This document shows positions 1 through 18,841 of a stretch of 18,841 bases of DNA, one piece after another. The stretch lies in IMG/VR virus record IMGVR_UViG_2718217868_000006. The stretch is one strand, 5' to 3'. Position 1 is the first letter of the stretch. Each line of letters begins with the position of its first letter. This DNA is from a virus. Lineage: Duplodnaviria > Heunggongvirae > Uroviricota > Caudoviricetes. The position numbers were made by a program, and so were the translations under genes. Below the pieces are notes generated by a model. That model ran no database searches. It saw nothing but the letters and a program-made list of their open reading frames with translations, and was not told the origin of the DNA.

Positions 1-585
1 CTATTCGATAATGGGTACTGTTGGCCATTCAATATCCGGTGCAGTTGTTGTATTAACACGGTTCAGCAACACCCGATATTTTTTCCAGGCTTCCAGCAAT
101 GAGGTTTCTTCCTCCGTTGCGATCTCCAGATCTACAGCATCCTGAAGTGGCGCTATATGCTCACTGGCTACCTGCATCAGGCTGTTTTTTGTTTCGTCCG
201 CCTCCCGGATCCGGAACAGTTTTTCTGCTTCCGTATCCTTCACCCAGGCTGTGCCGTTCCACTTCTGATATTCCCCTTCCGGCGATAACCAGGTGACATT
301 TTCCGGTAACGGACCGAGTTCAGAAATAAATAACGCGTCGCCGGAAGCCACGTCATAGACGGTTTTTCCCCGATGATCTTCAACGAGATGCCACGATGCC
401 TCATCACTGTTGAAAACAGCCACAAAGCCAGCCGGAATATCTGGCGGTGCAATATCGGTACTGTTTGCTGGCAGACCTGTATGAGGCGGAATATATGCGT
501 CACCTTCACCAATAAATTCATTAGTTCCGGCCAGCAGATTATAAATTTTTATGGTCCGTGGTTGTTCACTCATTCTGAATGCCAT
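1..585 (-). CDS. tfa: Tail fiber assembly protein (Tfa family)
   Basis: 194-aa ORF, ATG at 585..583, stop at 3..1. Translation recognised as lambdoid tail fiber assembly chaperone; immediately follows a tail-fiber C-terminal ORF with a TAATG stop/start overlap. Confidence 0.8.
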
Positions 586-1151
586 TATGCAAGCCTCACA
601 ATATAGTTAAATGCGATGTTTTTGACGGTGTTTTCCGCGTTACCAGCAGCGTTAACGGTGATGGTGTGTCCATGTGAACCAATCGCAACGGAGTGCGTGT
701 GTGCACCAATACCGACAGTATGTGCGTGTGCACCTGCAGATGCTGCTGTGCCGGACAGTGAGTGGCTATGGTTACCATCTGTACTGGTATTAGCTAACGC
801 CCCCGTAGACATACCTACTGAGCCTTGTACACCCCAGGTATTTTGACCTGAGCTTGTATAACCATATTGATAAGTATCTTTAAAAACACTGGGGTTAAAT
901 CGACGGCCATCTCTATGGCTGTGATTACCAGCTGCATTCGTGCTGCCACTTAAACTATGGGTATGCGCACCAGTGTTATTCGTGGATTTAGTGCCGTAAT
1001 CAAACGACGATGTGGTTTTCGTCCCCAAATCAGTACTGGATGCGCTGGCGCTGTGGGTATGCGATTTTATGCCGTCCTGTTCCTGAGACAATACGGCACG
1101 ACCACTGGCGGGCTTGCCCTTAATCGTCCAGCCACGCATATCAGGGATCAC
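585..1151 (-). CDS. Side tail fiber protein, C-terminal fragment (His-rich HxH repeats); likely a 5'-truncated remnant
   Basis: Translation is Gly/Ser/Thr/His-rich with repeated HTHS/HSHS/GAHTH motifs typical of phage tail-fiber distal domains. Frame stays open upstream to 1208 with no ATG (only GTG at 1151 or ATG at 1139), and no upstream tail genes exist. Confidence 0.65.
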
Positions 1152-1267
1152 GCCTGACGGATAAGCGGCTGCAAGTTTCGGGTATCGTATTAATTGATCT
1201 GCATCAACTTAACGTAAAAACAACTTCAGACAATACAAATCAGCGACACTGAATACGGGACAACCTC

Positions 1268-3823: not shown

Positions 3824-4411
3824 TTACATCATGTCTTTTTCTAAAAAAAATCTTGATGAATATTGATGGAGAGGAACACCAAAATACCTTCTGAAAACAC
3901 TTACAAAATATGACGTGTTTTCATAACCGCATATCTCAGCAACTTTTCCAACAGAATATAAATTGTAGCTTAATAACCTTTCCGCCATCACCATTCGCTC
4001 TTCAAGAATTAACTTACTAAATGATAAGCCTTCGTGCTTTAATTTTCTTTTTAACAGACTTTCACTCAGATACAGTCTTGAAGATATATCACAAAGTCTC
4101 CATGCTGCAGATATATCCGTATGAATAATAGCCTTAACTTTACTTCCTAAACTATTAAGACATCCAAATAAAAAACTTTGCACTATTTTCTCTGAAGATA
4201 AGATAGCAAGACATGCAAGTGATATTTGATTTCTAACAAAATCCACAGTTCTGCCATCACAATTCAAGCATGCAATCAAGTTCTTTAACAATGAAAAATC
4301 TTCACATTCCACCATCAAGTATGCCGGATAAAACCTTCTTACAGAAAAAGGTGAGAGTGTGTTGCTTTTAAAGAAATCATTAACTGTTTTCTCTTCAACA
4401 TCTACGATCAT
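3824..4411 (-). CDS. AraC/XylS-family transcriptional regulator (short, AT-rich cargo gene)
   Basis: 195-aa ORF with a C-terminal double helix-turn-helix region typical of AraC-family proteins (…SFSKLILEERMVMAERLL…VGKVAEICGYENTSYFVSVFRRYFGVPLHQY). Markedly AT-rich coding and flanking DNA. Confidence 0.7.
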   Translation of the reverse strand: MIVDVEEKTVNDFFKSNTLSPFSVRRFYPAYLMVECEDFSLLKNLIACLNCDGRTVDFVRNQISLACLAILSSEKIVQSFLFGCLNSLGSKVKAIIHTDISAAWRLCDISSRLYLSESLLKRKLKHEGLSFSKLILEERMVMAERLLSYNLYSVGKVAEICGYENTSYFVSVFRRYFGVPLHQYSSRFFLEKDMM

Positions 4412-4904
4412 TACATGATCTATATTTGATGAAAAAAATCTTTTAAATTGTAATCAATGAGAACAGCACTTCCTTTTTAAACAAAATATCTTCTTTACCA
4501 ATTCGGACATCAAACGAGTTCAACACCAAAATAATAGAACATATGTATGGCATATTATCCACCTGATATCATTGGGGTTACACCAGGTAAGTATAGGTGG
4601 AAAATCAATATTCGCCAGTTCAACAATAAGGAAAATTTCATTGCATCACAAGTATAAAATTATGTATTTAACTCACAAAGACAAATTATTAAACCAATCT
4701 GTTATATTATATATAGCTGCGTGGAATCATAATATTATATATTTTGACTGGCATGTTTACCAACTTTAAGTTGCATCTCAATTGTTTCTTCAGCGTAAAC
4801 AGAGTTTTTATACAAACTGACACTCTGGGTATCATAGTGTAGTTTTTACGATTGTAAATATCCTGCATGCAGGAACTCATCCTTTTGGATGATATCGCAT
4901 ACAA

Positions 4905-5864
4905 TTAATTTACCATCAGTCTTAGAGCCAGTTCGTCCGGATAGGGATCGAAGTAATTCTGTGTAAGCAAGTAATCATTAGGATACTCACCCAGATAATG
5001 CTTCAGCAGAGTCAACGGCGCAAGAAGAGGTAATGTGCCAGAACGATAGTTAAGTATAACCTCGCTCAACTCTTTACGCTGGCGTGTACTTAAGTAGTTA
5101 CTAAAATACCCCTGTATATGCATCAGCACATTCGTGTGATTTTTACGTGATGCAGGTTTTCTGAGAATCGCCATCAGCTTATCACGATACACCTCAAAGT
5201 ATGATTCAAGGTCCGCCCACTCGTGTATTGCAGCCACAAATGGTCCCATATCTTTATAGCCTGCCTGACTATGCGCCAACAACTGAAGCTTATAACGACT
5301 ATGAAAAGCTAATAACTCTCTTCTTGATAATTTCTCCTTGTAAAGGTGATTGAGCTCATGCAAAGCAAAAACTCTTTCAACAAAATTCTCACGAAGCACT
5401 GGATCATGTAATCGCCCATCCTCTTCAACCGGTAGCCAGGAAAACTTTTCCATCAAAGTGCTCGTAAATAGTCCCACTCCATCTTTACGACCTCGATTAC
5501 CATTTTCATCATAGACACGCACGCGCTCCATGCCACAGCTGGGAGATTTAGCACAAACCACAAACCCCGATACATCCTTTAATTTGTCCATATAAGAACG
5601 ACTAAACTCTGTCATTCTCTCTGTCACATCCTCATTCTGGTCGTGGCTGAAACACATCCGTATATTTCCTTGCATCGAGCGCACAAGACGTAGAGCAGGA
5701 CGCGGAACTGGCAGCCCTATAGCCATTTCCGGACATACTGGTCTGAATGTTACCCATTCCACTAATTTGTCCATTAAAAAGTCAGCTCTTTTGTGACCAC
5801 CATCAAAACGAACAGCAGAACCGGCCAAACAACCGCTGATTCCAATCACAGGTTTTTTTATCAT
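4905..5864 (-). CDS. DUF523(TudS-like)/DUF1722 fusion protein, putative [4Fe-4S] thionucleoside desulfidase (RudS-like)
   Basis: 319-aa ORF. N-terminal half has the three-Cys signature of DUF523/TudS (GISGCLAG, RPVCPE, SPSCG); C-terminal half resembles YbgA-type DUF1722. SD AGGGGGAGAAT upstream of ATG at 5864. Confidence 0.65.
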   Translation of the reverse strand: MIKKPVIGISGCLAGSAVRFDGGHKRADFLMDKLVEWVTFRPVCPEMAIGLPVPRPALRLVRSMQGNIRMCFSHDQNEDVTERMTEFSRSYMDKLKDVSGFVVCAKSPSCGMERVRVYDENGNRGRKDGVGLFTSTLMEKFSWLPVEEDGRLHDPVLRENFVERVFALHELNHLYKEKLSRRELLAFHSRYKLQLLAHSQAGYKDMGPFVAAIHEWADLESYFEVYRDKLMAILRKPASRKNHTNVLMHIQGYFSNYLSTRQRKELSEVILNYRSGTLPLLAPLTLLKHYLGEYPNDYLLTQNYFDPYPDELALRLMVN

Positions 5865-6056: not shown

Positions 6057-6581
6057 ATGAAGTTATGGCCTGTGTTGACTGGCATTGCACTCTCTTTCAC
6101 TCTTATAGCATGTAAGGCCCCGACACCACCTAAAGGTGTGCAGCCGATTACAAATTTTGACGCCAACCGCTACCTCGGAAAATGGTATGAAATAGCTCGC
6201 CTCGAGAACCGGTTCGAACGTGGTCTGGAACAGGTCAGCGCTACTTATGGAAAACGGAACGACGGAGGGATTCGTGTACTTAACCGTGGATACGATCCAA
6301 CGAAAAATAAATGGAGCGAGAGCGAAGGTAAAGCATACTTTACTGGAGATACTAAAACTGCAGCATTGAAGGTTTCGTTTTTTGGCCCCTTCTATGGTGG
6401 CTATAATGTAATCAAACTGGATGATGAGTATAAGTATGCTCTTGTCAGTGGTCCGAACAGAGAATACCTATGGATTCTGGCAAGGACCCCAACTATTCCA
6501 GATAAAGTAAAAGCAGACTATGTGCGAACCGCTCAAAAGTTGGGATTCAATGTCAATGAATTATTATGGGTTAAACAATAA
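6057..6581 (+). CDS. Bacterial lipocalin (Blc-like outer-membrane lipoprotein)
   Basis: 174-aa ORF with lipoprotein signal (lipobox LIAC) and strong similarity to remembered E. coli Blc (…FDANRYLGKWYEIARLENRFERGLE…KVSFFGPFYGGYNVI…YLWILARTP…). Encoded opposite to late transcription. Confidence 0.85.
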   Translation: MKLWPVLTGIALSFTLIACKAPTPPKGVQPITNFDANRYLGKWYEIARLENRFERGLEQVSATYGKRNDGGIRVLNRGYDPTKNKWSESEGKAYFTGDTKTAALKVSFFGPFYGGYNVIKLDDEYKYALVSGPNREYLWILARTPTIPDKVKADYVRTAQKLGFNVNELLWVKQ

Positions 6582-7699: not shown

Positions 7700-7788
7700 G
7701 CCTTAATAACCCCCTCTTTCAGCCAGATACGCTCCTGTCCGGCAAAGTTACCTCTGCCGAAGTTGAGTATTTTTGCTGTATTTGTCAT
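7696..7788 (-). pseudogene. O: Replication initiator O remnant: first 20 codons of lambda O fused to 10 unrelated codons
   Basis: ATG at 7788 with lambda O N-terminus MTNTAKILNFGRGNFAGQER, then divergence ([10 protein letters not shown], stop) running into the rusA GTG. No iterons/ori or P gene follow. Confidence 0.8.
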
Positions 7789-7798
7789 AATGACTCCT

Positions 7799-7875
7799 GT
7801 TGATAGATCCAGTAATGACCTCAGAACTCCATCTGGATTTGTTCAGAACGCTCGGTTGCCGCCGGGCGTTTTTTA
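7799..7875 (+). ncRNA. oop: oop antisense RNA (about 77 nt) overlapping the 3' end of cII
   Basis: + strand sequence GTTGATAGATCCAGTAATGACCTCAGAACTCCATCTGGATTTGTTCAGAACGCTCGGTTGCCGCCGGGCGTTTTTTAT matches remembered lambda oop RNA with its terminator. Candidate po promoter: -35 TTGAGT 7763..7768, -10 CATAAT 7786..7791. Confidence 0.7.
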
Positions 7876-8114
7876 TTGGTGAGAATCGCAGCAACTTGTC
7901 GCGCCAATCGAGCCATGTCGTCGTCAACGACCCCCCATTCAAGAACAGCAAGCAGCATTGAGAACTTTGGAATCCAGTCCCTCTTCCACCTGCTGATCTG
8001 CGACTTATCAACGCCCACAGCTTCCGCTGTCTTCTCAGTTCCAAGCATTGCGATTTTGTTAAGCAACGCACTCTCGATTCGTAGAGCCTCGTTGCGTTTG
8101 TTTGCACGAACCAT
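7821..8114 (-). CDS. cII: Transcriptional activator CII
   Basis: Translation from the ATG at 8114 (MVRANKRNEALRIESALLNKIAMLGTEKTAEAVGVDKSQISRWKRDWIPKFSMLLAVLEWGVVDDDMARLARQVAAILTNKKRPAATERSEQIQMEF, 97 aa) matches remembered lambda CII. The track ORF extends upstream to 8174, but the phage start is 8114. Confidence 0.9.
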   Translation of the reverse strand: MVRANKRNEALRIESALLNKIAMLGTEKTAEAVGVDKSQISRWKRDWIPKFSMLLAVLEWGVVDDDMARLARQVAAILTNKKRPAATERSEQIQMEF

Positions 8115-8193
8115 ATGTAAGTATTTCCTTAGATAACAATTGATTGAATGTATGCAAATAAATGCATACACCATAGGTGTGGTTTAATTTGAT

Positions 8194-8225
8194 GCCCTTT
8201 TTCAGGGCTGGGATGTGTAAGAGCG
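8194..8225 (-). promoter_or_regulatory. nutR (boxA CGCTCTTA and boxB GCCCTGAAAAAGGGC)
   Basis: On the - strand between cro and cII: boxA at 8225..8218, boxB hairpin at 8208..8194, matching the lambda nutR consensus. Confidence 0.8.
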
Positions 8226-8233
8226 GGAATGTC

Positions 8234-9588
<1,355 letters not shown>

Positions 9589-9638
9589 TCCCCACCTCAA
9601 TCTCGATAACCAAAAAACAAACTATTTTCCGTTTAAAA

Positions 9639-9707
9639 ACAATGGAGTTTGTTTTTCACGCCCCTTTTTTACAATATTTCTTGTTTACAACATACAATCT
9701 TTCTTGT
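9639..9707. promoter_or_regulatory. OL operator region (three 434-type operators) with PL
   Basis: Three ACAA-N6-TTGT 14-mers at 9639..9652 (ACAATGGAGTTTGT), 9671..9684 (ACAATATTTCTTGT), 9694..9707 (ACAATCTTTCTTGT). Candidate PL: -35 TTTACA 9685..9690, -10 TAATTT 9708..9713, directed toward N. Confidence 0.75.
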
Positions 9708-9752
9708 AATTTTAAGCCATCAGCAGGACGCACTGACCACCATTGAAGGTGA

Positions 9753-9783
9753 TGCTCTTAAAAATTAAGCCCTGAAGAAGGGC
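9753..9783 (+). promoter_or_regulatory. nutL (boxA variant TGCTCTTA and boxB GCCCTGAAGAAGGGC)
   Basis: boxB hairpin at 9769..9783 identical to the lambda nutL boxB; boxA at 9753..9760 differs from the CGCTCTTA consensus at its first base. Confidence 0.8.
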
Positions 9784-9941
9784 AGCATTCAAAGCAGAAG
9801 GCTTTGGGGTGTGTGATACGAAACGAAGCATTGGCCGGAAGTGCGAATCCGGATTAGCTGCAAATGAGCCAATCGTGGGGTGTTTTCGTTCAGGACTACG
9901 ACTCACACACACCACCAAAGCTAACTGACAAGAGAATCCAG

Positions 9942-10265
9942 ATGGATGCACAAACACGCCGCCGCGAACGTCGCGCAGAGAAACAGGCTCAATGGAAAGC
10001 AGCAAATCCCCTGTTGGTTGGGGTAAGCGCAAAACCAGTTAACCGCCCTATTCTCTCGCTGAATCGCAAACCGAAATCACGAGTAGAAAGCGCACTGAAT
10101 CCGATAGACCTTACGGTGCTGGCTGAATACCACGAACAGATTGAAAGCAACCTGCAACGTATTGAGCGCAAGAATCATCGAGTTTGGTATAGCAAGCCAA
10201 GTGAGTTCGGTATAACTTGTCAAGGAAGACAAAAGGTTAAAGGGAAATCCATTCCATTGGCATGA
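9942..10265 (+). CDS. N: Antitermination protein N (lambda-like)
   Basis: Translation from the ATG at 9942 begins MDAQTRRRERRAEKQAQWKAANPLL, the arginine-rich boxB-binding motif of lambda N; 107 aa. The track ORF starts upstream at 9864. Confidence 0.9.
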   Translation: MDAQTRRRERRAEKQAQWKAANPLLVGVSAKPVNRPILSLNRKPKSRVESALNPIDLTVLAEYHEQIESNLQRIERKNHRVWYSKPSEFGITCQGRQKVKGKSIPLA

Positions 10266-10273
10266 GGTACGTA

Positions 10274-11143
10274 ATGAAGAAAATTGATTACAAGTCCATA
10301 CCAAAACCAATAGACTCAGCATCAGAGCGAAAAAAACACAAAAAAGAGGCTGAAAAATTAGCAAATTATATCAGTTTTATTAGAAACAATGCTCACGGCG
10401 ATGGCGACAGGAAGTTGCTTTCAGATGCCCGGACCCAAGCGTTCAGCATACTTCGTAAGCAGATGCAATATCGTCTTCATCCAGGCTACATAATTGAAAT
10501 TCGCCCGACTGAAAGACAATTGTTCTTATTAAACTCTGTCTTTGACTTTGTAAACGTAGTTGGAGATCTTATCGACAGGTCTGTAGATAAGGCTCCTGAT
10601 ACAAATAGTTTTCTTCTAACAAATAAAGAATACTTATATGGTAAATTTGGTATAAACGGATGGCAAAAATATGTACGATTCTTACGTGCATTCGTTGATG
10701 CGTATAAAAATTCCGACATGATTTATACATATTTGCCTGGTGGTAATAATTGTACGCTTTCGGCAGACAATAGAATATTCATACCTATACTTGGTCTTGG
10801 GCTGATTAATGCAGTAAATGAAAGAGATGTTATAATTGTTAAGCAGTGGCGAAAGCATGAGGGATATAGATATCTGCCATGCTTTGATATATTAAAAATA
10901 CAGAATAAATTCTATGTAAAAATTAAATATAAAGAAGATGTTTTCTTCCTCAGAAAAAACAAAGATCTTTTACAAGAACTTTCTGGGACAATAGATGTCA
11001 TCGTAGGTTCTAGGTTTATAAAAGAACTGAAAGAAAGCAGGTCTTTCTCTCGTGTAGAGATAAGCGAGTCAGAGTTATGGGGTATATCAAATAATCCTGT
11101 AAACCACGCTCACCAACGAAATCCAAACAAAAAGTGGTCATAA
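10274..11143 (+). CDS. Hypothetical protein, 289 aa, AT-rich; unrecognised gene in the N-to-ea10 slot
   Basis: Long ORF immediately after N (alternative ATG at 10262 overlaps the N stop; ATG at 10274 has a GAGG SD). No family recognised by eye; rich in Lys/Asn/Tyr/Phe. Followed by a strong terminator. Confidence 0.6.
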   Translation: MKKIDYKSIPKPIDSASERKKHKKEAEKLANYISFIRNNAHGDGDRKLLSDARTQAFSILRKQMQYRLHPGYIIEIRPTERQLFLLNSVFDFVNVVGDLIDRSVDKAPDTNSFLLTNKEYLYGKFGINGWQKYVRFLRAFVDAYKNSDMIYTYLPGGNNCTLSADNRIFIPILGLGLINAVNERDVIIVKQWRKHEGYRYLPCFDILKIQNKFYVKIKYKEDVFFLRKNKDLLQELSGTIDVIVGSRFIKELKESRSFSRVEISESELWGISNNPVNHAHQRNPNKKWS

Positions 11144-11166
11144 CCCGCTCAGGCGGGTTTCATTTT
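11143..11166 (+). terminator. Intrinsic terminator after the 289-aa gene
   Basis: ACCCGC-TCAG-GCGGGT hairpin followed by TTCATTTT immediately after the stop codon. Confidence 0.65.
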
Positions 11167-11285
11167 CACGCAAACAACAGAATAAACACTGCACTGTGTA
11201 TTCATTCCAACGAGTGAATACACGGAGCAATGTCGCTCGTAACTAAACAGGAGTCGACTTGTTCTGATTATTGGAAATCTTCTTT

Positions 11286-11311
11286 GCCCTCCAGTATGAG
11301 GGCGATTTTTT
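11286..11311 (+). terminator. Putative intrinsic terminator (tL2-like position)
   Basis: GCCCTC-CAGTAT-GAGGGC hairpin followed by GATTTTTT, upstream of the ea10-like gene. Confidence 0.5.
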
Positions 11312-11331
11312 ATCTGTGAGGATATGAATAG

Positions 11332-11700
11332 ATGTCAAACATCAAAAAATACATCATTGATTACGACTGGAAAGCATCAATAGAAATTGAAATCGACCAT
11401 GACGTAATGACAGAGGAAAAACTTCACCAGATTAATAATTTCTGGTCAGACTCTGAATACCGACTCAATAAACACGGCTCTGTATTAAATGCTGTATTAA
11501 TCATGCTGGCGCAACATGCTCTGCTTATAGCAATTTCAAGCGACTTAAATGCATATGGTGTTGTGTGTGAGTTCGACTGGAATGATGGAAATGGTCAGGA
11601 AGGATGGCCTCCAATGGATGGTAGCGAAGGAATAAGAATTACCGATATCGATACATCAGGAATATTTGATTCAGATGATATGACTATCAAAGCCGCCTGA
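11332..11700 (+). CDS. ea10: Ea10-like early protein (122 aa)
   Basis: 122-aa acidic ORF with SD GAGGA, adjacent to cIII as in lambda. Assignment rests on position and length; the sequence itself is not recalled with certainty. Confidence 0.5.
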   Translation: MSNIKKYIIDYDWKASIEIEIDHDVMTEEKLHQINNFWSDSEYRLNKHGSVLNAVLIMLAQHALLIAISSDLNAYGVVCEFDWNDGNGQEGWPPMDGSEGIRITDIDTSGIFDSDDMTIKAA

Positions 11701-11772
11701 GCGCGGCGTTACCGCATACCAATAACGCTTCACTCGAGGCGTTTTTCGTTATGTATAAATAAGGAGCACACC

Positions 11773-11937
11773 ATGCAATATGCCATTGCAGGGTGGCCTG
11801 TTGCTGGCTGCCCTTCCGAATCTTTACTTGAACGAATCACCCGTAAATTACGTGACGGATGGAAACGCCTTATCGACATACTTAATCAGCCAGGAGTCCC
11901 AAAAAATGGATCAAACACTTATGGCTATCCAGACTAA
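11773..11937 (+). CDS. cIII: CIII (FtsH/HflB inhibitor stabilising CII)
   Basis: Not on the ORF track (54 aa). Translation [54 protein letters not shown] matches remembered lambda CIII; SD AAGGAG upstream. Confidence 0.9.
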   Translation: MQYAIAGWPVAGCPSESLLERITRKLRDGWKRLIDILNQPGVPKNGSNTYGYPD

Positions 11938-12049
11938 ATTCACTATCGCCACTTTTATTGGCGATGAAAAGATGTTTCGTGAGGCCGTCGACGCTTATAA
12001 AAAATGGATATTAATACTGAAACTGAGATCAAGCAAAAGCATTCACTAA
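11906..12049 (+). CDS. kil: Kil (host cell-division inhibitor)
   Basis: 47-aa [50 protein letters not shown], overlapping the 3' end of cIII and the 5' end of gam as in lambda. Confidence 0.8.
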
Positions 12050-12420
12050 CCTCCTTTCCTGTTTTCCTAATCAGCCCGGCATTTCGCGGGCGATATTTTC
12101 ACAGCTATTTCAGGAGTTCAGCCATGAACGCTTATTACATTCAGGATCGTCTTGAGGCTCAGAGCTGGACGCGTCACTACCAGCAGATCGCCCGTGAAGA
12201 GAAAGAGGCAGAACTGGCAGACGACATGGAAAAAGGTCTGCCCCAGCACCTGTTTGAATCACTCTGCATCGATCATTTACAACGCCACGGGGCCAGCAAA
12301 AAAGCCATTACCCGTGCGTTTGATGACGATGTTGAGTTTCAGGAGCGCATGGCAGAACACATCCGGTACATGGTTGAAACCATTGCTCACCACCAGGTTG
12401 ATATTGATTCAGAGGTATAA
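12004..12420 (+). CDS. gam: Gam (RecBCD inhibitor)
   Basis: 138-aa ORF near-identical to remembered lambda Gam ([16 protein letters not shown]…[10 protein letters not shown]), including the internal Met for the short form. Confidence 0.95.
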
Positions 12421-12425
12421 AACGG

Positions 12426-13211
12426 ATGAGTACAGCACTCGCAACGCTGGCTGGGAAGCTGGCTGAACGCGTCGGCATGGATTCTGTCGACCCACAGGAA
12501 CTGATCACCACTCTTCGCCAGACGGCATTTAAAGGTGATGCCAGCGATGCGCAGTTCATCGCATTGCTGATCGTCGCCAACCAGTACGGCCTTAATCCGT
12601 GGACGAAAGAAATTTACGCCTTCCCTGACAAGCAGAACGGCATCGTTCCGGTGGTGGGCGTTGATGGCTGGTCCCGTATCATCAATGAAAACCAGCAGTT
12701 TGATGGCATGGACTTTGAGCAGGACAATGAATCCTGCACATGCCGGATTTACCGCAAAGACCGCAATCATCCGATCTGCGTTACCGAGTGGATGGATGAA
12801 TGCCGCCGCGAACCATTCAAAACCCGCGAAGGCAGAGAAATCACGGGGCCGTGGCAGTCGCATCCCAAACGGATGTTACGGCATAAAGCCATGATTCAGT
12901 GTGCCCGTCTCGCCTTCGGATTTGCTGGTATCTATGACAAGGATGAAGCCGAGCGCATTGTCGAAAATACCGCATACACTGCAGAACGTCAGCCGGAACG
13001 CGACATCACTCCGGTTAACGATGAAACCATGCAGGAGATTAACACTCTGCTGATTGCCCTGGATAAAACATGGGATGACGACTTATTGCCGCTCTGTTCC
13101 CAGATATTTCGCCGCGACATTCGCGCATCGTCAGAACTGACACAGGCCGAAGCAGTGAAAGCTCTTGGATTCCTGAAACAGAAAGCCACTGAGCAGAAGG
13201 TGGCTGCATGA
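12426..13211 (+). CDS. bet: Bet (Red-beta single-strand annealing recombinase)
   Basis: 261-aa ORF near-identical to remembered lambda Bet ([37 protein letters not shown]…). Confidence 0.95.
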
Positions 13212-13888
13212 CACCGGACATTATCCTGCAGCGTACCGGAATCGACGTGAGAGCTGTCGAACAGGGGGATGATGCGTGGCACAAATTACGGCTCGGCGTC
13301 ATCACCGCTTCAGAAGTTCACAATGTGATAGCAAAACCCCGCTCCGGAAAAAAGTGGCCTGACATGAAAATGTCCTACTTCCACACCCTGCTGGCTGAGG
13401 TTTGCACCGGTGTGGCTCCGGAAGTTAATGCTAAGGCGCTGGCATGGGGAAAACAGTACGAGAACGACGCCAGAACTCTGTTTGAATTCACTTCCGGCGT
13501 GAATGTTACTGAATCCCCGATCATCTAACGCGACGAAAGTATGCGTACCGCCTGCTCTCCCGATGGTTTATGCAGTGACGGCAATGGCCTTGAGCTGAAA
13601 TGCCCGTTTACCTCCCGGGATTTCATGAAGTTCCGGCTCGGTGGTTTCGAGGCCATAAAGTCGGCTTACATGGCCCAGGTGCAGTACAGCATGTGGGTGA
13701 CGCGAAAAGATGCCTGGTACTTTGCCAACTATGACCCGCGTATGAAGCGTGAAGGCCTGCATTATGTCGTGGTTGAGCGGGATGAAAAGTACATGGCGAG
13801 TTTTGACGAGATGGTGCCGGAGTTCATCGAAAAAATGGACGAGGCACTGGCTGAAATTGGTTTTGTATTTGGGGAGCAATGGCGATGA
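13208..13888 (+). pseudogene. exo: exo (lambda Red 5'-3' exonuclease) interrupted by an in-frame ochre codon at 13526..13528
   Basis: A single frame of 226 codons matches lambda Exo throughout ([11 protein letters not shown]…GEQWR), but codon 107 is TAA where lambda has Tyr (…ESPII[15 protein letters not shown]…). The ORF track shows the two halves as 13208..13528 and 13541..13888. Confidence 0.85.
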
Positions 13889-14067
13889 AGCATCCTCACG
13901 ATAATATCCGGGTAGGTGCGATCACTTTCGTCTACTCCGTTACAAAGCGAGGCTGGGTATTTCCCGGCCTTTCTGTTATCAGAAATCCCCTGAAAGCACA
14001 GCGGCTGGCTGAGGAGATAAATAATAAACGGGGGGCTGTATGCACAAAGCATCTCCTGTTGAGTTAA
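13885..14067 (+). CDS. Lambda early-left small ORF (orf60a-like)
   Basis: Small ORF overlapping the end of exo in lambda-like arrangement. Start assigned to the second Met (60 aa) by analogy with lambda; it could be 13879. Confidence 0.55.
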
Positions 14068-14231
14068 GAACGTGTATCGAGATGGCACATAGCCTCGCTC
14101 AAATTGGAGTCAGGTTTGTGCCAATACCAGTAGAAACAGACGAAGAATTTCATACGTTAGCCGCATCCCTTTCACAAAAGCTGGAAATGATGGTGGCGAA
14201 AGCAGAAGCAGATGAGAGAGACCAGGTATGA
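14040..14231 (+). CDS. Lambda early-left small ORF (orf63-like)
   Basis: 63-aa ORF in the lambda-like position between exo and ea22. Confidence 0.6.
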   Translation: MHKASPVELRTCIEMAHSLAQIGVRFVPIPVETDEEFHTLAASLSQKLEMMVAKAEADERDQV

Positions 14232-14307
14232 CAACCACTGAATGCATTTTTCTGGCAGCGGGCTTCATATTCTGTGTGCTTATGCTTGCCGACATGGGGC
14301 TTGTTCA

Positions 14308-14523
14308 ATGACACCTCAGCAAGAAAACGCCCTTCGCAGCATTGCCCGTCAGGCTAATTCTGAAATCAAAAAAGCCAGACAGCAGTTTCCGGATAAAAAC
14401 GTCGATGACATTTGCCGTAGCGTACTGAAGAAGCACCGCGAAACGGTAACGCTGATGGGATTCACACCGACTCATTTAAGCCTGGCGATCGGCATGTTAA
14501 ACGGCGTCTTTAAGGAACGGTGA
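14308..14523 (+). CDS. Lambda early-left small ORF (orf61-like); start uncertain
   Basis: Track ORF 14242..14523; the internal ATG at 14308 (MTPQQENALRSIARQANSEIKKARQQF…) is the more plausible start. Name assigned by position only. Confidence 0.45.
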   Translation: MTPQQENALRSIARQANSEIKKARQQFPDKNVDDICRSVLKKHRETVTLMGFTPTHLSLAIGMLNGVFKER

Positions 14524-14621
14524 GCATGAAAAACAAAATCATCATGGAGCTACAGGCTCCTTTTTTATTATTCGCATTCACCCTCAAGCGTATTAACCAA
14601 CAATTCAGGGATTAATGAAAG

Positions 14622-14843
14622 ATGGCAGACATCATTGATTCAGCATCAGAAATTGAAGAATTACAGCGCAACACAGCAATAAAAATGCGCCGCCTGAACC
14701 ACCAGGCTATATCTGCCACTCATTGTTGTGAGTGTGGCGATCCGATAGATGAACGAAGACGCTTGGCCGTTCAGGGTTGTCGGACTTGTGCAAGTTGCCA
14801 GGAGGATCTGGAACTTATCAGTAAACAGAGAGGTTCGAAGTGA
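14622..14843 (+). CDS. TraR/DksA-family C4 zinc-finger protein (lambda orf73-like)
   Basis: 73-aa ORF with a CxxC…CxxC motif (CCECGDPIDERRRLAVQGCRTCASC) characteristic of the TraR/DksA zinc finger; position matches lambda orf73. Confidence 0.8.
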   Translation: MADIIDSASEIEELQRNTAIKMRRLNHQAISATHCCECGDPIDERRRLAVQGCRTCASCQEDLELISKQRGSK

Positions 14844-15388
14844 GCGAAATTAACTCTCAGGCACTGCGTGAAGCGGCAGAGCAGGCAATGCATGACGACT
14901 GGGGATTTGACGCAGACCTTTTCCATGAATTGGTAACACCATCGATTGTGCTGGAACTGCTGGATGAACGGGAAAGAAACCAGCAATACATCAAACGCCG
15001 CGACCAGGAGAACGAGGATATTGCGCTAACAGTAGGGAAACTGCGTGTTGAGCTTGAAACAGCAAAATCAAAACTCAACGAGCAGCGTGAGTATTACGAA
15101 GGTGTTATCTCGGATGGGAGTAAGCGTATTGCTAAACTGGAAAGCAACGAAGTCCGTGAAGACGGAAACCAGTTTCTTGTTGTTCGCCATCCTGGGAAGA
15201 CTCCTGTTATCAAGCACTGCACTGGTGACCTGGAAGAGTTTCTGCGGCAGTTAATCGAACAAGACCCGTTAGTAACTATCGACATCATTACGCATCGCTA
15301 TTACGGGGTTGGAGGTCAATGGGTTCAGGATGCAGGTGAGTATCTGCATATGATGTCTGACGCTGGCATTCGCATCAAAGGAGAGTGA
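14840..15388 (+). CDS. ea22: Ea22 early protein
   Basis: 182-aa ORF in the lambda ea22 position with matching length and a central coiled-coil-like segment; start overlaps the preceding stop. Confidence 0.75.
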   Translation: MSEINSQALREAAEQAMHDDWGFDADLFHELVTPSIVLELLDERERNQQYIKRRDQENEDIALTVGKLRVELETAKSKLNEQREYYEGVISDGSKRIAKLESNEVREDGNQFLVVRHPGKTPVIKHCTGDLEEFLRQLIEQDPLVTIDIITHRYYGVGGQWVQDAGEYLHMMSDAGIRIKGE

Positions 15389-15579
15389 GATCGGTTTTGT
15401 AAAAGATAACGCTTGTGAAAATGCTGAATTTCGCGTCGTCTTCACAGCGATGCCAGAGTCTGTAGTGTCAGATGATGACCGTACTCAAACATCGGGTTGA
15501 GTATTATCTTACTGTTTCTTTACATAAACATTGCTGATACCGTTTAGCTGAAACGACATACATTGCAAGGAGTTTATAA

Positions 15580-15861
15580 ATGAGTATCAATGAGTTAGAG
15601 TCTGAGCAAAAAGATTGGGCGTTATCAATGTTGTGCAGATCCGGTGTCTTGTCTCCATGCAGACATCACGAAGGTGTTTATGTAGATGAAGGTATAGATA
15701 TAGAGTCGGCATACAAATATTCCATGAAGGTTTATAAGTCTAATGAAGACAAATCCCCATTCTGCAATGTGCGAGAAATGACTGATACCGTGCAAAATTA
15801 TTATCACGAGTACGGTGGAAACGATACTTGCCCTCTCTGTACAAAACATATAGATGATTAA
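15580..15861 (+). CDS. ea8.5: Ea8.5 early protein (Cys/His-containing)
   Basis: 93-aa ORF in the lambda ea8.5 position and length, with Cys/His pairs (CRHHEG…CPLCTKH) suggesting a metal site. Confidence 0.75.
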   Translation: MSINELESEQKDWALSMLCRSGVLSPCRHHEGVYVDEGIDIESAYKYSMKVYKSNEDKSPFCNVREMTDTVQNYYHEYGGNDTCPLCTKHIDD

Positions 15862-15949
15862 ACCCAATATTACATAACAATCCTCGCACTCGCGGGGATT
15901 TATTTTATCTGAACTCGCTACGGCGGGTTTTGTTTTATGGAGATGATAA

Positions 15950-16117
15950 ATGCACTTCCGAGTCACAGGAGAATGGAATGGAGAGCCATTCAACAGAGTT
16001 ATCGAAGCGGAGAACATCAACGACTGCTACGACCACTGGATGATATGGGCGCAGATAGCACATGCAGACATAACCAATATTCGAATTGAAGAACTGAAAG
16101 AACACCAAGCCGCCTGA
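15950..16117 (+). CDS. Small ORF (55 aa) between ea8.5 and xis (lambda orf55-like)
   Basis: Not on the ORF track. ATG at 15950, translation MHFRVTGEWNGEPFNRVIEAENINDCYDHWMIWAQIAHADITNIRIEELKEHQAA, stop at 16115..16117 embedded in a terminator hairpin. Confidence 0.5.
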   Translation: MHFRVTGEWNGEPFNRVIEAENINDCYDHWMIWAQIAHADITNIRIEELKEHQAA

Positions 16118-16129
16118 TGGCGGTTTTTT
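16109..16129 (+). terminator. Intrinsic terminator upstream of xis
   Basis: CCGCC-TGAT-GGCGG hairpin followed by TTTTTT. Confidence 0.6.
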
Positions 16130-16156
16130 CTTGCGTGTAATTGCGGAGACTTTGCG

Positions 16157-16375
16157 ATGTACTTGACACTTCAGGAGTGGAACGCTCGCCAGCGACGCCC
16201 AAGAAGCCTTGAAACAGTTCGTCGATGGGTGCGCGAATGCAGGATATTCCCTCCTCCGGTTAAGGATGGAAGAGAATATCTGTTCCACGAATCAGCGGTA
16301 AAGGTTGACTTAAATCGACCAGTAACAGGTAGCCTTTTGAAGAGGATCAGAAATGGGAAGAAGGCGAAGTCATGA
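16157..16375 (+). CDS. xis: Excisionase Xis
   Basis: 72-aa ORF matching remembered lambda Xis (MYLTLQEWNARQRRPRSLETVRRWVRECRIFPPPVKDGREYLFHESAVKVDLNRP…), overlapping the int start. Confidence 0.95.
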   Translation: MYLTLQEWNARQRRPRSLETVRRWVRECRIFPPPVKDGREYLFHESAVKVDLNRPVTGSLLKRIRNGKKAKS

Positions 16376-17423
16376 GCGCCGGGATTTACCCCCTAACCTT
16401 TATATAAGAAACAATGGATATTACTGCTACAGGGACCCAAGGACGGGTAAAGAGTTTGGATTAGGCAGAGACAGGCGAATCGCAATCACTGAAGCCATAC
16501 AGGCCAACATTGAGTTATTCTCAGGACACAAACACAAGCCTCTGACAGCGAGAATCAACAGTGATAATTCCGTTACGTTACATTCATGGCTTGATCGCTA
16601 CGAAAAAATCCTGGCCAGCAGAGGAATCAAGCAGAAGACACTCATAAATTACATGAGCAAAATTAAAGCAATAAGGAGGGGGCTGCCTGATGCTCCACTT
16701 GAAGACATCACCACAAAAGAAATTGCGGCAATGCTCAATGGATACATAGACGAGGGCAAGGCGGCGTCAGCCAAGTTAATCAGATCAACACTGAGCGATG
16801 CATTCCGAGAGGCAATAGCTGAAGGCCATATAACAACAAACCCTGTCGCTGCCACTCGCGCAGCAAAATCAGAGGTAAGGAGATCAAGACTTACGGCTGA
16901 CGAATACCTGAAAATTTATCAAGCAGCAGAATCATCACCATGTTGGCTCAGACTTGCAATGGAACTGGCTGTTGTTACCGGGCAACGAGTTGGTGATTTA
17001 TGCGAAATGAAGTGGTCTGATATCGTAGATGGATATCTTTATGTCGAGCAAAGCAAAACAGGCGTAAAAATTGCCATCCCAACAACATTGCATGTTGATG
17101 CTCTCGGGATATCAATGAAGGAAACACTTGATAAATGCAAAGAGATTCTTGGCGGAGAAACCATAATTGCATCTACTCGTCGTGAACCGCTTTCATCCGG
17201 CACAGTATCAAGGTATTTTATGCGCGCACGAAAAGCATCAGGTCTTTCCTTCGAAGGGGATCCGCCTACCTTTCACGAGTTGCGCAGTTTGTCTGCAAGA
17301 CTCTATGAGAAGCAGATAAGCGATAAGTTTGCTCAACATCTTCTCGGGCATAAGTCGGACACCATGGCATCACAGTATCGTGATGACAGAGGCAGGGAGT
17401 GGGACAAAATTGAAATCAAATAA
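16353..17423 (+). CDS. int: Integrase Int (tyrosine recombinase)
   Basis: 356-aa ORF matching remembered lambda Int, with catalytic Tyr in the …ASQYRDDRG… context and the RHR triad region present. Confidence 0.95.
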   Translation: MGRRRSHERRDLPPNLYIRNNGYYCYRDPRTGKEFGLGRDRRIAITEAIQANIELFSGHKHKPLTARINSDNSVTLHSWLDRYEKILASRGIKQKTLINYMSKIKAIRRGLPDAPLEDITTKEIAAMLNGYIDEGKAASAKLIRSTLSDAFREAIAEGHITTNPVAATRAAKSEVRRSRLTADEYLKIYQAAESSPCWLRLAMELAVVTGQRVGDLCEMKWSDIVDGYLYVEQSKTGVKIAIPTTLHVDALGISMKETLDKCKEILGGETIIASTRREPLSSGTVSRYFMRARKASGLSFEGDPPTFHELRSLSARLYEKQISDKFAQHLLGHKSDTMASQYRDDRGREWDKIEIK

Positions 17424-17511
17424 TGATTTTATTTTGACTGATAGTGACCTGTTCGTTGCAACAAATTGATAAGCAATGCTTTTTTATAATGTCAACTTAG
17501 TATAAAAAAGC
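17424..17511. promoter_or_regulatory. Prophage-host junction: P' arm with Int arm-type sites plus the 15-bp core (attL-type junction)
   Basis: Sequence after the int stop matches the lambda P' arm (…GACTGATAGTGACCTGTTCGTTGCAACAAATTGATAAGCAATGC…). Core TTAGTATAAAAAAGC (reverse complement of GCTTTTTTATACTAA) at 17497..17511 is followed by AGGCTTCA, matching the bacterial attB side. Confidence 0.9.
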
Positions 17512-17557
17512 AGGCTTCAACGGATTCATTTTTCTATTTCATAGCCCGGAGCAACCT

Positions 17558-18841
17558 GTGAACACATTTTCAGTTTCCCGTCTGGCGCTGGCATTGGCTT
17601 TTGGCGTGACGCTGACCGCCTGTAGCTCAACCCCGCCCGATCAACGTCCTTCTGATCAAACCGCGCCTGGTACCTCTTCTCGCCCGATTCTGTCGGCAAA
17701 AGAAGCGCAGAATTTCGATGCTCAACACTATTTTGCATCCCTGACACCAGGTGCTGCAGCGTGGAATCCTTCCCCGATTACCCTGCCTGCGCAACCTGAC
17801 TTTGTTGTCGGCCCGGCGGGCACTCAAGGTGTAACGCATACCACGATTCAGGCGGCGGTAGATGCGGCAATTATCAAGCGTACCAACAAGCGCCAGTATA
17901 TTGCCGTGATGCCTGGTGAGTATCAGGGAACGGTATATGTCCCTGCCGCTCCGGGTGGAATTACTCTGTACGGTACAGGTGAAAAACCGATTGATGTGAA
18001 GATTGGGCTTTCCCTTGATGGTGGCATGAGCCCTGCCGACTGGCGTCACGACGTCAACCCGCGCGGCAAATATATGCCAGGTAAACCAGCGTGGTATATG
18101 TACGATAGCTGCCAGAGCAAACGCAGCGACAGTATCGGTGTTCTCTGCTCTGCGGTCTTCTGGTCACAAAACAATGGCCTGCAACTGCAAAATCTGACCA
18201 TCGAAAACACGCTGGGCGATAGCGTAGATGCAGGTAACCATCCGGCGGTGGCACTGCGTACTGATGGTGACCAGGTACAGATTAACAACGTTAACATTCT
18301 CGGTCGTCAGAACACCTTCTTTGTCACCAACAGCGGTGTGCAGAACCGTCTGGAAACGAATCGTCAGCCGCGTACGCTGGTGACCAACAGCTACATTGAA
18401 GGGGATGTGGATATCGTTTCTGGTCGCGGCGCAGTGGTGTTCGATAACACCGAATTCCGCGTGGTGAACTCACGTACTCAGCAAGAAGCGTATGTGTTTG
18501 CACCGGCTACGCTGTCCAACATTTACTACGGTTTCCTCGCCGTAAACAGCCGTTTCAATGCTTTCGGTGATGGTGTGGCGCAACTGGGCCGCTCGCTGGA
18601 TGTTGATGCCAATACCAACGGTCAGGTGGTGATCCGTGATAGCGCCATCAACGAAGGTTTTAACACGGCTAAACCGTGGGCCGATGCGGTGATCTCTAAT
18701 CGTCCGTTTGCGGGTAATACCGGCAGCGTAGATGATAACGACGAAATACAGCGCAATCTGAATGACACTAACTACAACCGCATGTGGGAATACAATAACC
18801 GCGGCGTGGGTAGTAAAGTGGTTGCAGAGGCGAAGAAGTAA
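17558..18841 (+). CDS. ybhC: Host lipoprotein YbhC (pectinesterase-family acyl-CoA thioesterase-like outer-membrane lipoprotein)
   Basis: 427-aa ORF with GTG start and lipobox LTAC, matching remembered E. coli YbhC, the gene flanking attB-lambda on the gal side. Confidence 0.9.
   Translation: MNTFSVSRLALALAFGVTLTACSSTPPDQRPSDQTAPGTSSRPILSAKEAQNFDAQHYFASLTPGAAAWNPSPITLPAQPDFVVGPAGTQGVTHTTIQAAVDAAIIKRTNKRQYIAVMPGEYQGTVYVPAAPGGITLYGTGEKPIDVKIGLSLDGGMSPADWRHDVNPRGKYMPGKPAWYMYDSCQSKRSDSIGVLCSAVFWSQNNGLQLQNLTIENTLGDSVDAGNHPAVALRTDGDQVQINNVNILGRQNTFFVTNSGVQNRLETNRQPRTLVTNSYIEGDVDIVSGRGAVVFDNTEFRVVNSRTQQEAYVFAPATLSNIYYGFLAVNSRFNAFGDGVAQLGRSLDVDANTNGQVVIRDSAINEGFNTAKPWADAVISNRPFAGNTGSVDDNDEIQRNLNDTNYNRMWEYNNRGVGSKVVAEAKK

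Follow-up and report, generated by a model that had tools for sequence, protein, structure and literature searches.

An ochre codon in exo of a 434/lambda-type Red operon in a prophage remnant of Escherichia coli

The DNA analysed here, referred to as the window, is a stretch of 18,841 nucleotides that carries a Red operon of the 434/lambda type in which gam and bet are intact and exo is interrupted by one premature stop codon. It is very probable that a genuine nonsense mutation confined to one lineage, from TAT to TAA, converted Tyr107 to a stop and thereby made exo a pseudogene. Over all 18,841 bases, the window agrees exactly with the chromosomes of E. coli H5 and H6 (NZ_CP010169 and NZ_CP010170), two separately assembled genomes that apparently come from sister isolates. 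The pseudogene status as such is already known, as the RefSeq entry for exo in H5/H6 reads 'lambda exonuclease family protein, pseudo, internal stop'.

The exo pseudogene (lambda exonuclease/YqaJ family) occupies positions 13208..13888 on the plus strand. It has 226 codons with an internal ochre stop at codon 107 (13526..13528, +), which is a tyrosine codon in the relatives; the derived base is the A at 13528. According to both the ORF list and the sequence, the stop leaves two open reading frames, an N-terminal one of 106 aa followed by TAA (13208..13528, +) and a C-terminal one of 115 aa followed by TGA, which begins at Met112 (13541..13888, +). The two lie in one frame and are 12 nt apart, with codons 108-111 between them. 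A sequence-only reading of the window had described these 106- and 115-codon halves, and had also stated that lambda has TAT where the window has TAA; the ORFs are as it described them, and direct comparison with the lambda genome (NC_001416) confirms the codon difference. TAT is also found at codon 107 in phage 434 and in the nearest intact allele.

The same reading held that the whole 226-codon frame matches lambda. This is borne out by the conceptual translation, which is colinear with lambda Exo and can be aligned with its structures over the full length. The intact sister allele aligns with PDB entries 6M9K, 1AVQ, 3SLP and 3SM4 over residues 1-226 (E-values of ca 1e-155), and the homology to the PD-(D/E)XK nucleases of the YqaJ family (PF09588) covers the whole protein. 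Between the window's exo and the nearest intact allele that was compared directly (L003, from strain 120899), the only difference is at 13528, where L003 has T instead of A, and the lesion is indeed the single point nonsense that had been proposed. Neither half of exo contains a second lesion. In RefSeq, the intact L003 allele is named WP_000186848.1, with 108 further complete-genome records at ≥99% identity.

Upstream of exo, gam (12004..12420, +) is intact in its long form of 138 aa, a 98-aa form starting at 12124, and bet (12426..13211, +) is likewise intact and encodes a RecT-family annealase of 261 aa, its stop overlapping the exo start (ATGA). Both genes have the lambda lengths and contain no indels, and the Pfam matches to RecT and Gam are full length in Bet and Gam, in agreement with the earlier statement that the flanking genes are full length. 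The claim that the operon is 'otherwise lambda-identical' was, on the other hand, overstated. The identity to lambda is 97-98%: 97.5% at the nucleotide level for exo (17 of 681 bases differ), 97.2% for bet and 98.1% for gam. At the protein level, exo has the changes N168D, I189V and I202M besides Y107*, bet has A255T as its sole change, and gam has four changes.

The early-left region as a whole is in fact phage-434-like. Positions 7719..14855 are colinear with phage 434 and 98.1% identical to it over 7.1 kb (imm434), and the features common to the two comprise the CI repressor, hex, the operators, PL, nutL and N, and further the genes for the 'Nun C-terminal peptide-containing protein', ea10, cIII, kil, gam, bet and exo. 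Bet shows no amino-acid difference from phage 434 Bet. Compared to the Red operons of lambda and phage 434 (gam-bet-exo under PL), the gene order, the gene lengths and the overlapping stop/start junctions are alike, while codon 107 of exo is a stop in the window and the element is a fixed chromosomal remnant without replication genes and almost without structural genes. On the downstream side, the start of orf60a (DUF1317; 13885..14067, +) overlaps the exo stop (ATGA). This gene has its own Shine-Dalgarno sequence, so any polar effect of the exo stop would likely be modest.

We now turn to the control region. The 434-type CI repressor (8555..9187, +), a protein of 210 aa with HTH and Peptidase_S24 domains, is intact and differs from 434 CI by one amino acid. 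The 434-type OL operators, PL and the nutL boxB, which drive the transcript from N to exo, were mapped from the annotated phage 434 record to 9639..9784 (+). Within this segment oL3 is exact (9639-9652), oL2 and oL1 have one mismatch each relative to phage 434, the transcription start maps near 9719, and nutL maps to 9768-9784. The antiterminator gene N follows at 9942..10265 (+), and gam, bet and exo lie in this order, with coupled junctions, downstream of PL, nutL and N. A generic sigma-70 scan returned 11 sites compared to 10.7 expected from shuffled sequence, which is no excess, and PL and OL were therefore placed by their homology to the annotated phage. By comparison with that record, CI, the OR and OL operators, PL, nutL and N all appear intact. 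Derepression, as in an SOS response, should still lead to transcription from N through gam, bet and the exo pseudogene, and Gam and Bet would be made without Exo.

Terminator-like hairpins number 14 in the segment 8100..14300, about twice the 6.1 expected from shuffled sequence. They include the nutL boxB stem, and the hairpin at 11284..11305 corresponds to a terminator that the phage 434 record places after the Nun-C-peptide gene.

Two accessory ORFs adjoin cI and N. The first, of 134 aa (9184..9588, +), follows cI in the rex slot and differs by two amino acids from its phage 434 counterpart, the 'repressor protection protein (Hex)'. The second, of 289 aa (10274..11143, +), lies directly after N in the slot of lambda sieB and ral. 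The final 20 residues (...VNHAHQRNPNKKWS) match the C-terminus of the PHROG family 'Nun-like transcription termination factor', and its phage 434 counterpart, 96.9% identical, is annotated 'Nun C-terminal peptide-containing protein'. The ORF could encode an exclusion factor in which a Nun-type tail for RNA-polymerase arrest is joined to a much larger protein body. A PADLOC scan of the two ORFs gave no match.

The distribution of the stop codon was examined with a 31-mer centred on the TAA, so that any megablast seed has to contain the variant base. This 31-mer matches 2 of 5,426 complete E. coli genomes, namely H5 and H6 only, while the same 31-mer with TAT matches 3,090 complete E. coli genomes. 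In metagenome contigs, with the third base of the codon left free, TAT was found in 120 and TAA in none of the first 120 matches listed. Beyond H5 and H6, the TAA is nevertheless present, with exo otherwise base-identical, in the ENA metagenome scaffolds ERZ28603213 (L005), ERZ14889830 (L010) and ERZ28603543 (L021) and in the Logan assemblies SRR6072696 (L006, a contig recorded in seven samples), ERR11509701 (one contig, L009/L026) and SRR6106825 (L012). The independent carriers thus amount to at least six assemblies or metagenome scaffolds from different sequencing projects. Relative to the window, these contigs have 1 to 4 substitutions over lengths of 3.7 to 9.2 kb.

Codon 107 is accordingly a sense codon in close and in distant relatives and a stop in one lineage, with the base confirmed independently. 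The TAA is a genuine derived point mutation and TAT the ancestral state, and the allele is rare and lineage-specific, marking a small lineage within which a few SNPs separate the members. The answer to the question raised in the sequence-only reading, whether the TAA is conserved in related isolates, is thus divided: it is shared beyond this isolate by the members of one lineage, whereas 3,090 genomes have TAT.

It is important to point out that protein records of the right length can be misleading here. Records of the exact 106-aa product exist for 31 contigs. A second 106-aa variant (P0012) was considered as an independent nonsense event in codon 107 and rejected, as all six places shown are contigs that end at codon 106/107. 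A query of exactly 106 aa selects contigs that end at this point in exo, and such ends, within 2 bases, were seen in L007, L008, L011, L013 and L015-L020, which come from unrelated assemblies. They are likely explained by the exact-length query combined with breaks in the assembly graph where multi-copy exo alleles diverge, and are unrelated to the TAA.

Concerning the age of the mutation, the absence of secondary decay in exo fits an evolutionarily recent inactivation, and the earlier proposal to this effect is consistent with the finding that no further lesion has accumulated in the gene. Taken with the diversity among the carriers, the sequences fit an inactivation that would be recent on an evolutionary timescale and yet older than the diversification of the carriers. 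A near-identical TAT version of the same prophage was sought in order to date the mutation, and none was found among the complete genomes. The closest TAT-bearing complete genomes are only ca 99.1% identical over 11264-17624, which does not allow finer dating.

Lesions in exo are also found in other E. coli. Codon 80 is changed from TGG to TAG (W80*) in L022 and L024, L023 and L027-L029 lack the 5' part of exo, with or without bet, through deletions, and a rearranged segment is found in L025. In L023 and L027-L029 bet is truncated or deleted as well, so that several other remnants have also lost bet, as general decay predicts. To judge from these contigs, exo loss is not unusual in E. coli prophages, and independent lesions recur. 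Cryptic lambdoid remnants of E. coli with decayed recombination modules are alike in their piecemeal point mutations and deletions; compared to the other decayed remnants, the exo lesion of the window stands out as a single clean nonsense codon in a gene that is otherwise undecayed.

The element in H5/H6 is itself a remnant of ca 17.5 kb located at attB-lambda. The lambda att core (attL) is at 17497..17511 (-), between int (16353..17423) and ybhC. At position 17492, in the attL arm and 5 bases from the core, H5/H6 have T, while the TAA contigs L005 and L009 have C. The gene run leads from cII directly to rusA, ylcG and Q, continues with two cargo genes, a frameshifted HTH gene and the lysis cassette, and ends with a truncated gene for the tail fibre and one for its assembly. 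O, P, the nin genes and terminase are missing, and the head and tail genes are gone except for the tail-fibre remnant.

Part of this loss can be located by comparison with L006, the TAA-bearing contig that keeps ninX, dam, ninB, ren, P and O. Relative to it, the window has a deletion of ca 3.5 kb (ninX-dam-ninB-ren-P-O) with its junction at 7719..7729, so that, between rusA and cII, P and the larger part of O are gone. The microhomology at the junction is at most 2-3 bases, and from 7719 onwards, beginning within the 5' end of O, the sequence is homologous to phage 434. With the O/P region deleted, the remnant in H5/H6 cannot replicate. Since L006 retains O and P, the TAA allele may in some hosts sit in a more complete, possibly inducible prophage.

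Other features of the remnant were noted along its length. The AraC-type HTH gene, frameshifted according to RefSeq (3824..4553, -), and the YbgA/DUF1722 (4905..5864, -) and lipocalin (6057..6581, +) cargo genes lie between Q and the lysis cassette. The tail-fibre assembly gene and the 5'-truncated tail-fibre gene form the left end of the element (1..1184 of the window and 1..720 of L001). A gene for a sensor diguanylate cyclase adjoins the left end just outside the window. The gene dgcX sits at attB-lambda, always beside lambdoid prophage DNA (PMC4287979), and the cyclase gene may be dgcX.

In H5/H6, the genes for replication and almost all of those for morphogenesis are gone as well, a context that the sequence-only reading did not take into account. 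The loss of exo is thus one of several lesions, and is best interpreted as a step in the neutral decay of a cryptic prophage, and not as something regulated or adaptive. We have also considered the case where the loss of Exo was selected, for example by removal of a toxic nuclease from an SOS-inducible remnant, with Bet and Gam kept for the host as a form of domestication. Several observations would agree with this: bet and gam are intact, with a Bet protein identical to that of phage 434, the control region is intact as well, exo has been inactivated independently in other strains, and the allele has been maintained throughout a lineage that shows some diversity. However, bet is itself truncated or deleted in L023 and L027-L029, the TAA allele is very rare, a single mutation in a single lineage constitutes no selection signal, and the toxic kil has been retained too. 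We consider this scenario highly improbable, and none of the observations points to it specifically. The more specific idea that the exo-null, bet+ gam+ state is kept by selection behind the SOS-responsive 434-type repressor is given even less credence; if it were true, the locus would be a natural Beta-only annealase, with ssDNA-templated recombination or repair during DNA damage and without end resection by Exo.

The consequences for the protein can be judged from the structural literature. For lambda Exo, a structure-function review (PMC7496540) names Glu85, Asp119 and Lys131 as active-site residues, Trp24 and Arg28 as the 5'-phosphate pocket, Leu78 as the wedge, and Arg45, Lys49, Met53, Lys76 and Arg137 as channel residues. 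In the window, the N-terminal fragment holds Trp24, Arg28, Arg45, Lys76, Leu78 and Glu85 and lacks Asp119, Glu129 and Lys131, whereas the C-terminal fragment holds Asp119, Glu129, Lys131 and Arg137. All of the listed residues are conserved but divided by the stop, and the active site (Glu85, Asp119, Glu129 and Lys131) and the pocket do not occur in one chain. The single Pfam YqaJ domain is split in the same way, with profile positions 2-78 in the N-terminal and 90-149 in the C-terminal fragment. With the TAA at codon 107, no uninterrupted polypeptide with a complete nuclease domain is encoded.

Translation from the bet-coupled exo start would stop after 106 residues, giving a fragment that has the 5'-phosphate pocket and Glu85 while Asp119, Glu129 and the catalytic Lys131 are missing. 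The last 115 codons would be readable only via inefficient re-initiation 12 nt past the stop, which would yield a product without the N-terminal half. The ATG at 13541 has an anti-SD pairing energy of −0.4 kcal/mol, i.e. essentially none, compared to −6.9 to −9.4 kcal/mol for the starts of gam, bet, exo, orf60a and orf63. As the active site is incomplete in both fragments and the downstream ATG lacks a ribosome-binding site, the allele is almost certainly Exo null, as judged from the sequence together with the published structure-function work, and an active toroidal exonuclease would not be expected.

The same results bear on two ways in which Exo activity could survive the stop, both of which we regard as very improbable. 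In one, both halves are made, the second by re-initiation at Met112, and assemble into a working split enzyme. The two ORFs are indeed in the same frame, 12 nt apart and both called by gene callers, and each half keeps part of the active site. However, the Met112 codon has practically no Shine-Dalgarno pairing, residues 107-111 would be absent, and the break falls mid-way in one compact YqaJ/PD-(D/E)XK domain. The arrangement is, moreover, not conserved outside one lineage, and other lineages simply delete or truncate exo. In the other, an ochre suppressor tRNA or programmed readthrough bypasses the stop, and full-length Exo continues to be produced. Against this, UAA is the stop codon at which translation terminates most efficiently in E. 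coli. Neither a conserved stop nor a cognate suppressor tRNA was found: the stop is limited to one lineage and absent from the 3,090 genomes and the 120 of 120 contigs with TAT, a tRNA scan of the window found no tRNA gene within it, and RefSeq calls exo a pseudogene. Least probable of all, to the point of being negligible, is that the TAA arose from an error in sequencing or assembly and exo is in reality intact, since, even though the complete genomes with TAA are only two apparent sisters, identical over the whole window, the same base is seen in the three Logan assemblies and three ENA metagenome scaffolds named above with an otherwise identical exo, which excludes a read error.

We thus return to an exo gene inactivated by a genuine nonsense mutation. 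Beta alone anneals ssDNA and supports recombination with ssDNA oligos, whereas recombination at dsDNA ends needs Exo. In an SOS-derepressed remnant of this type, Red-dependent resection of dsDNA ends, and hence dsDNA recombination, would be lost, while annealing of pre-existing ssDNA by Beta would stay. A Bet-only single-strand annealing phenotype is therefore plausible, as it would follow from Red biology. Since the element can neither replicate nor build virions, this Bet-only state is irrelevant to phage propagation in H5/H6.

The exo-null, bet+ (gam+) genotype is the same as that of the laboratory nonsense mutants of lambda red (exo) and of Beta-only recombineering constructs. Unlike the laboratory red mutants, the allele of the window is natural, belongs to a wild E. 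coli lineage and is under native CI repression. Laboratory work on Exo-null, Bet-positive genotypes goes back decades, and the exo TAA raises no new question on Red biology, its significance being little beyond bookkeeping. It is a clean and well-supported case of a gene inactivated in a single step within a cryptic prophage that is decaying, and it can be used to mark the lineage. For native Red-dependent recombination in H5/H6-like strains, no Exo activity would be expected.
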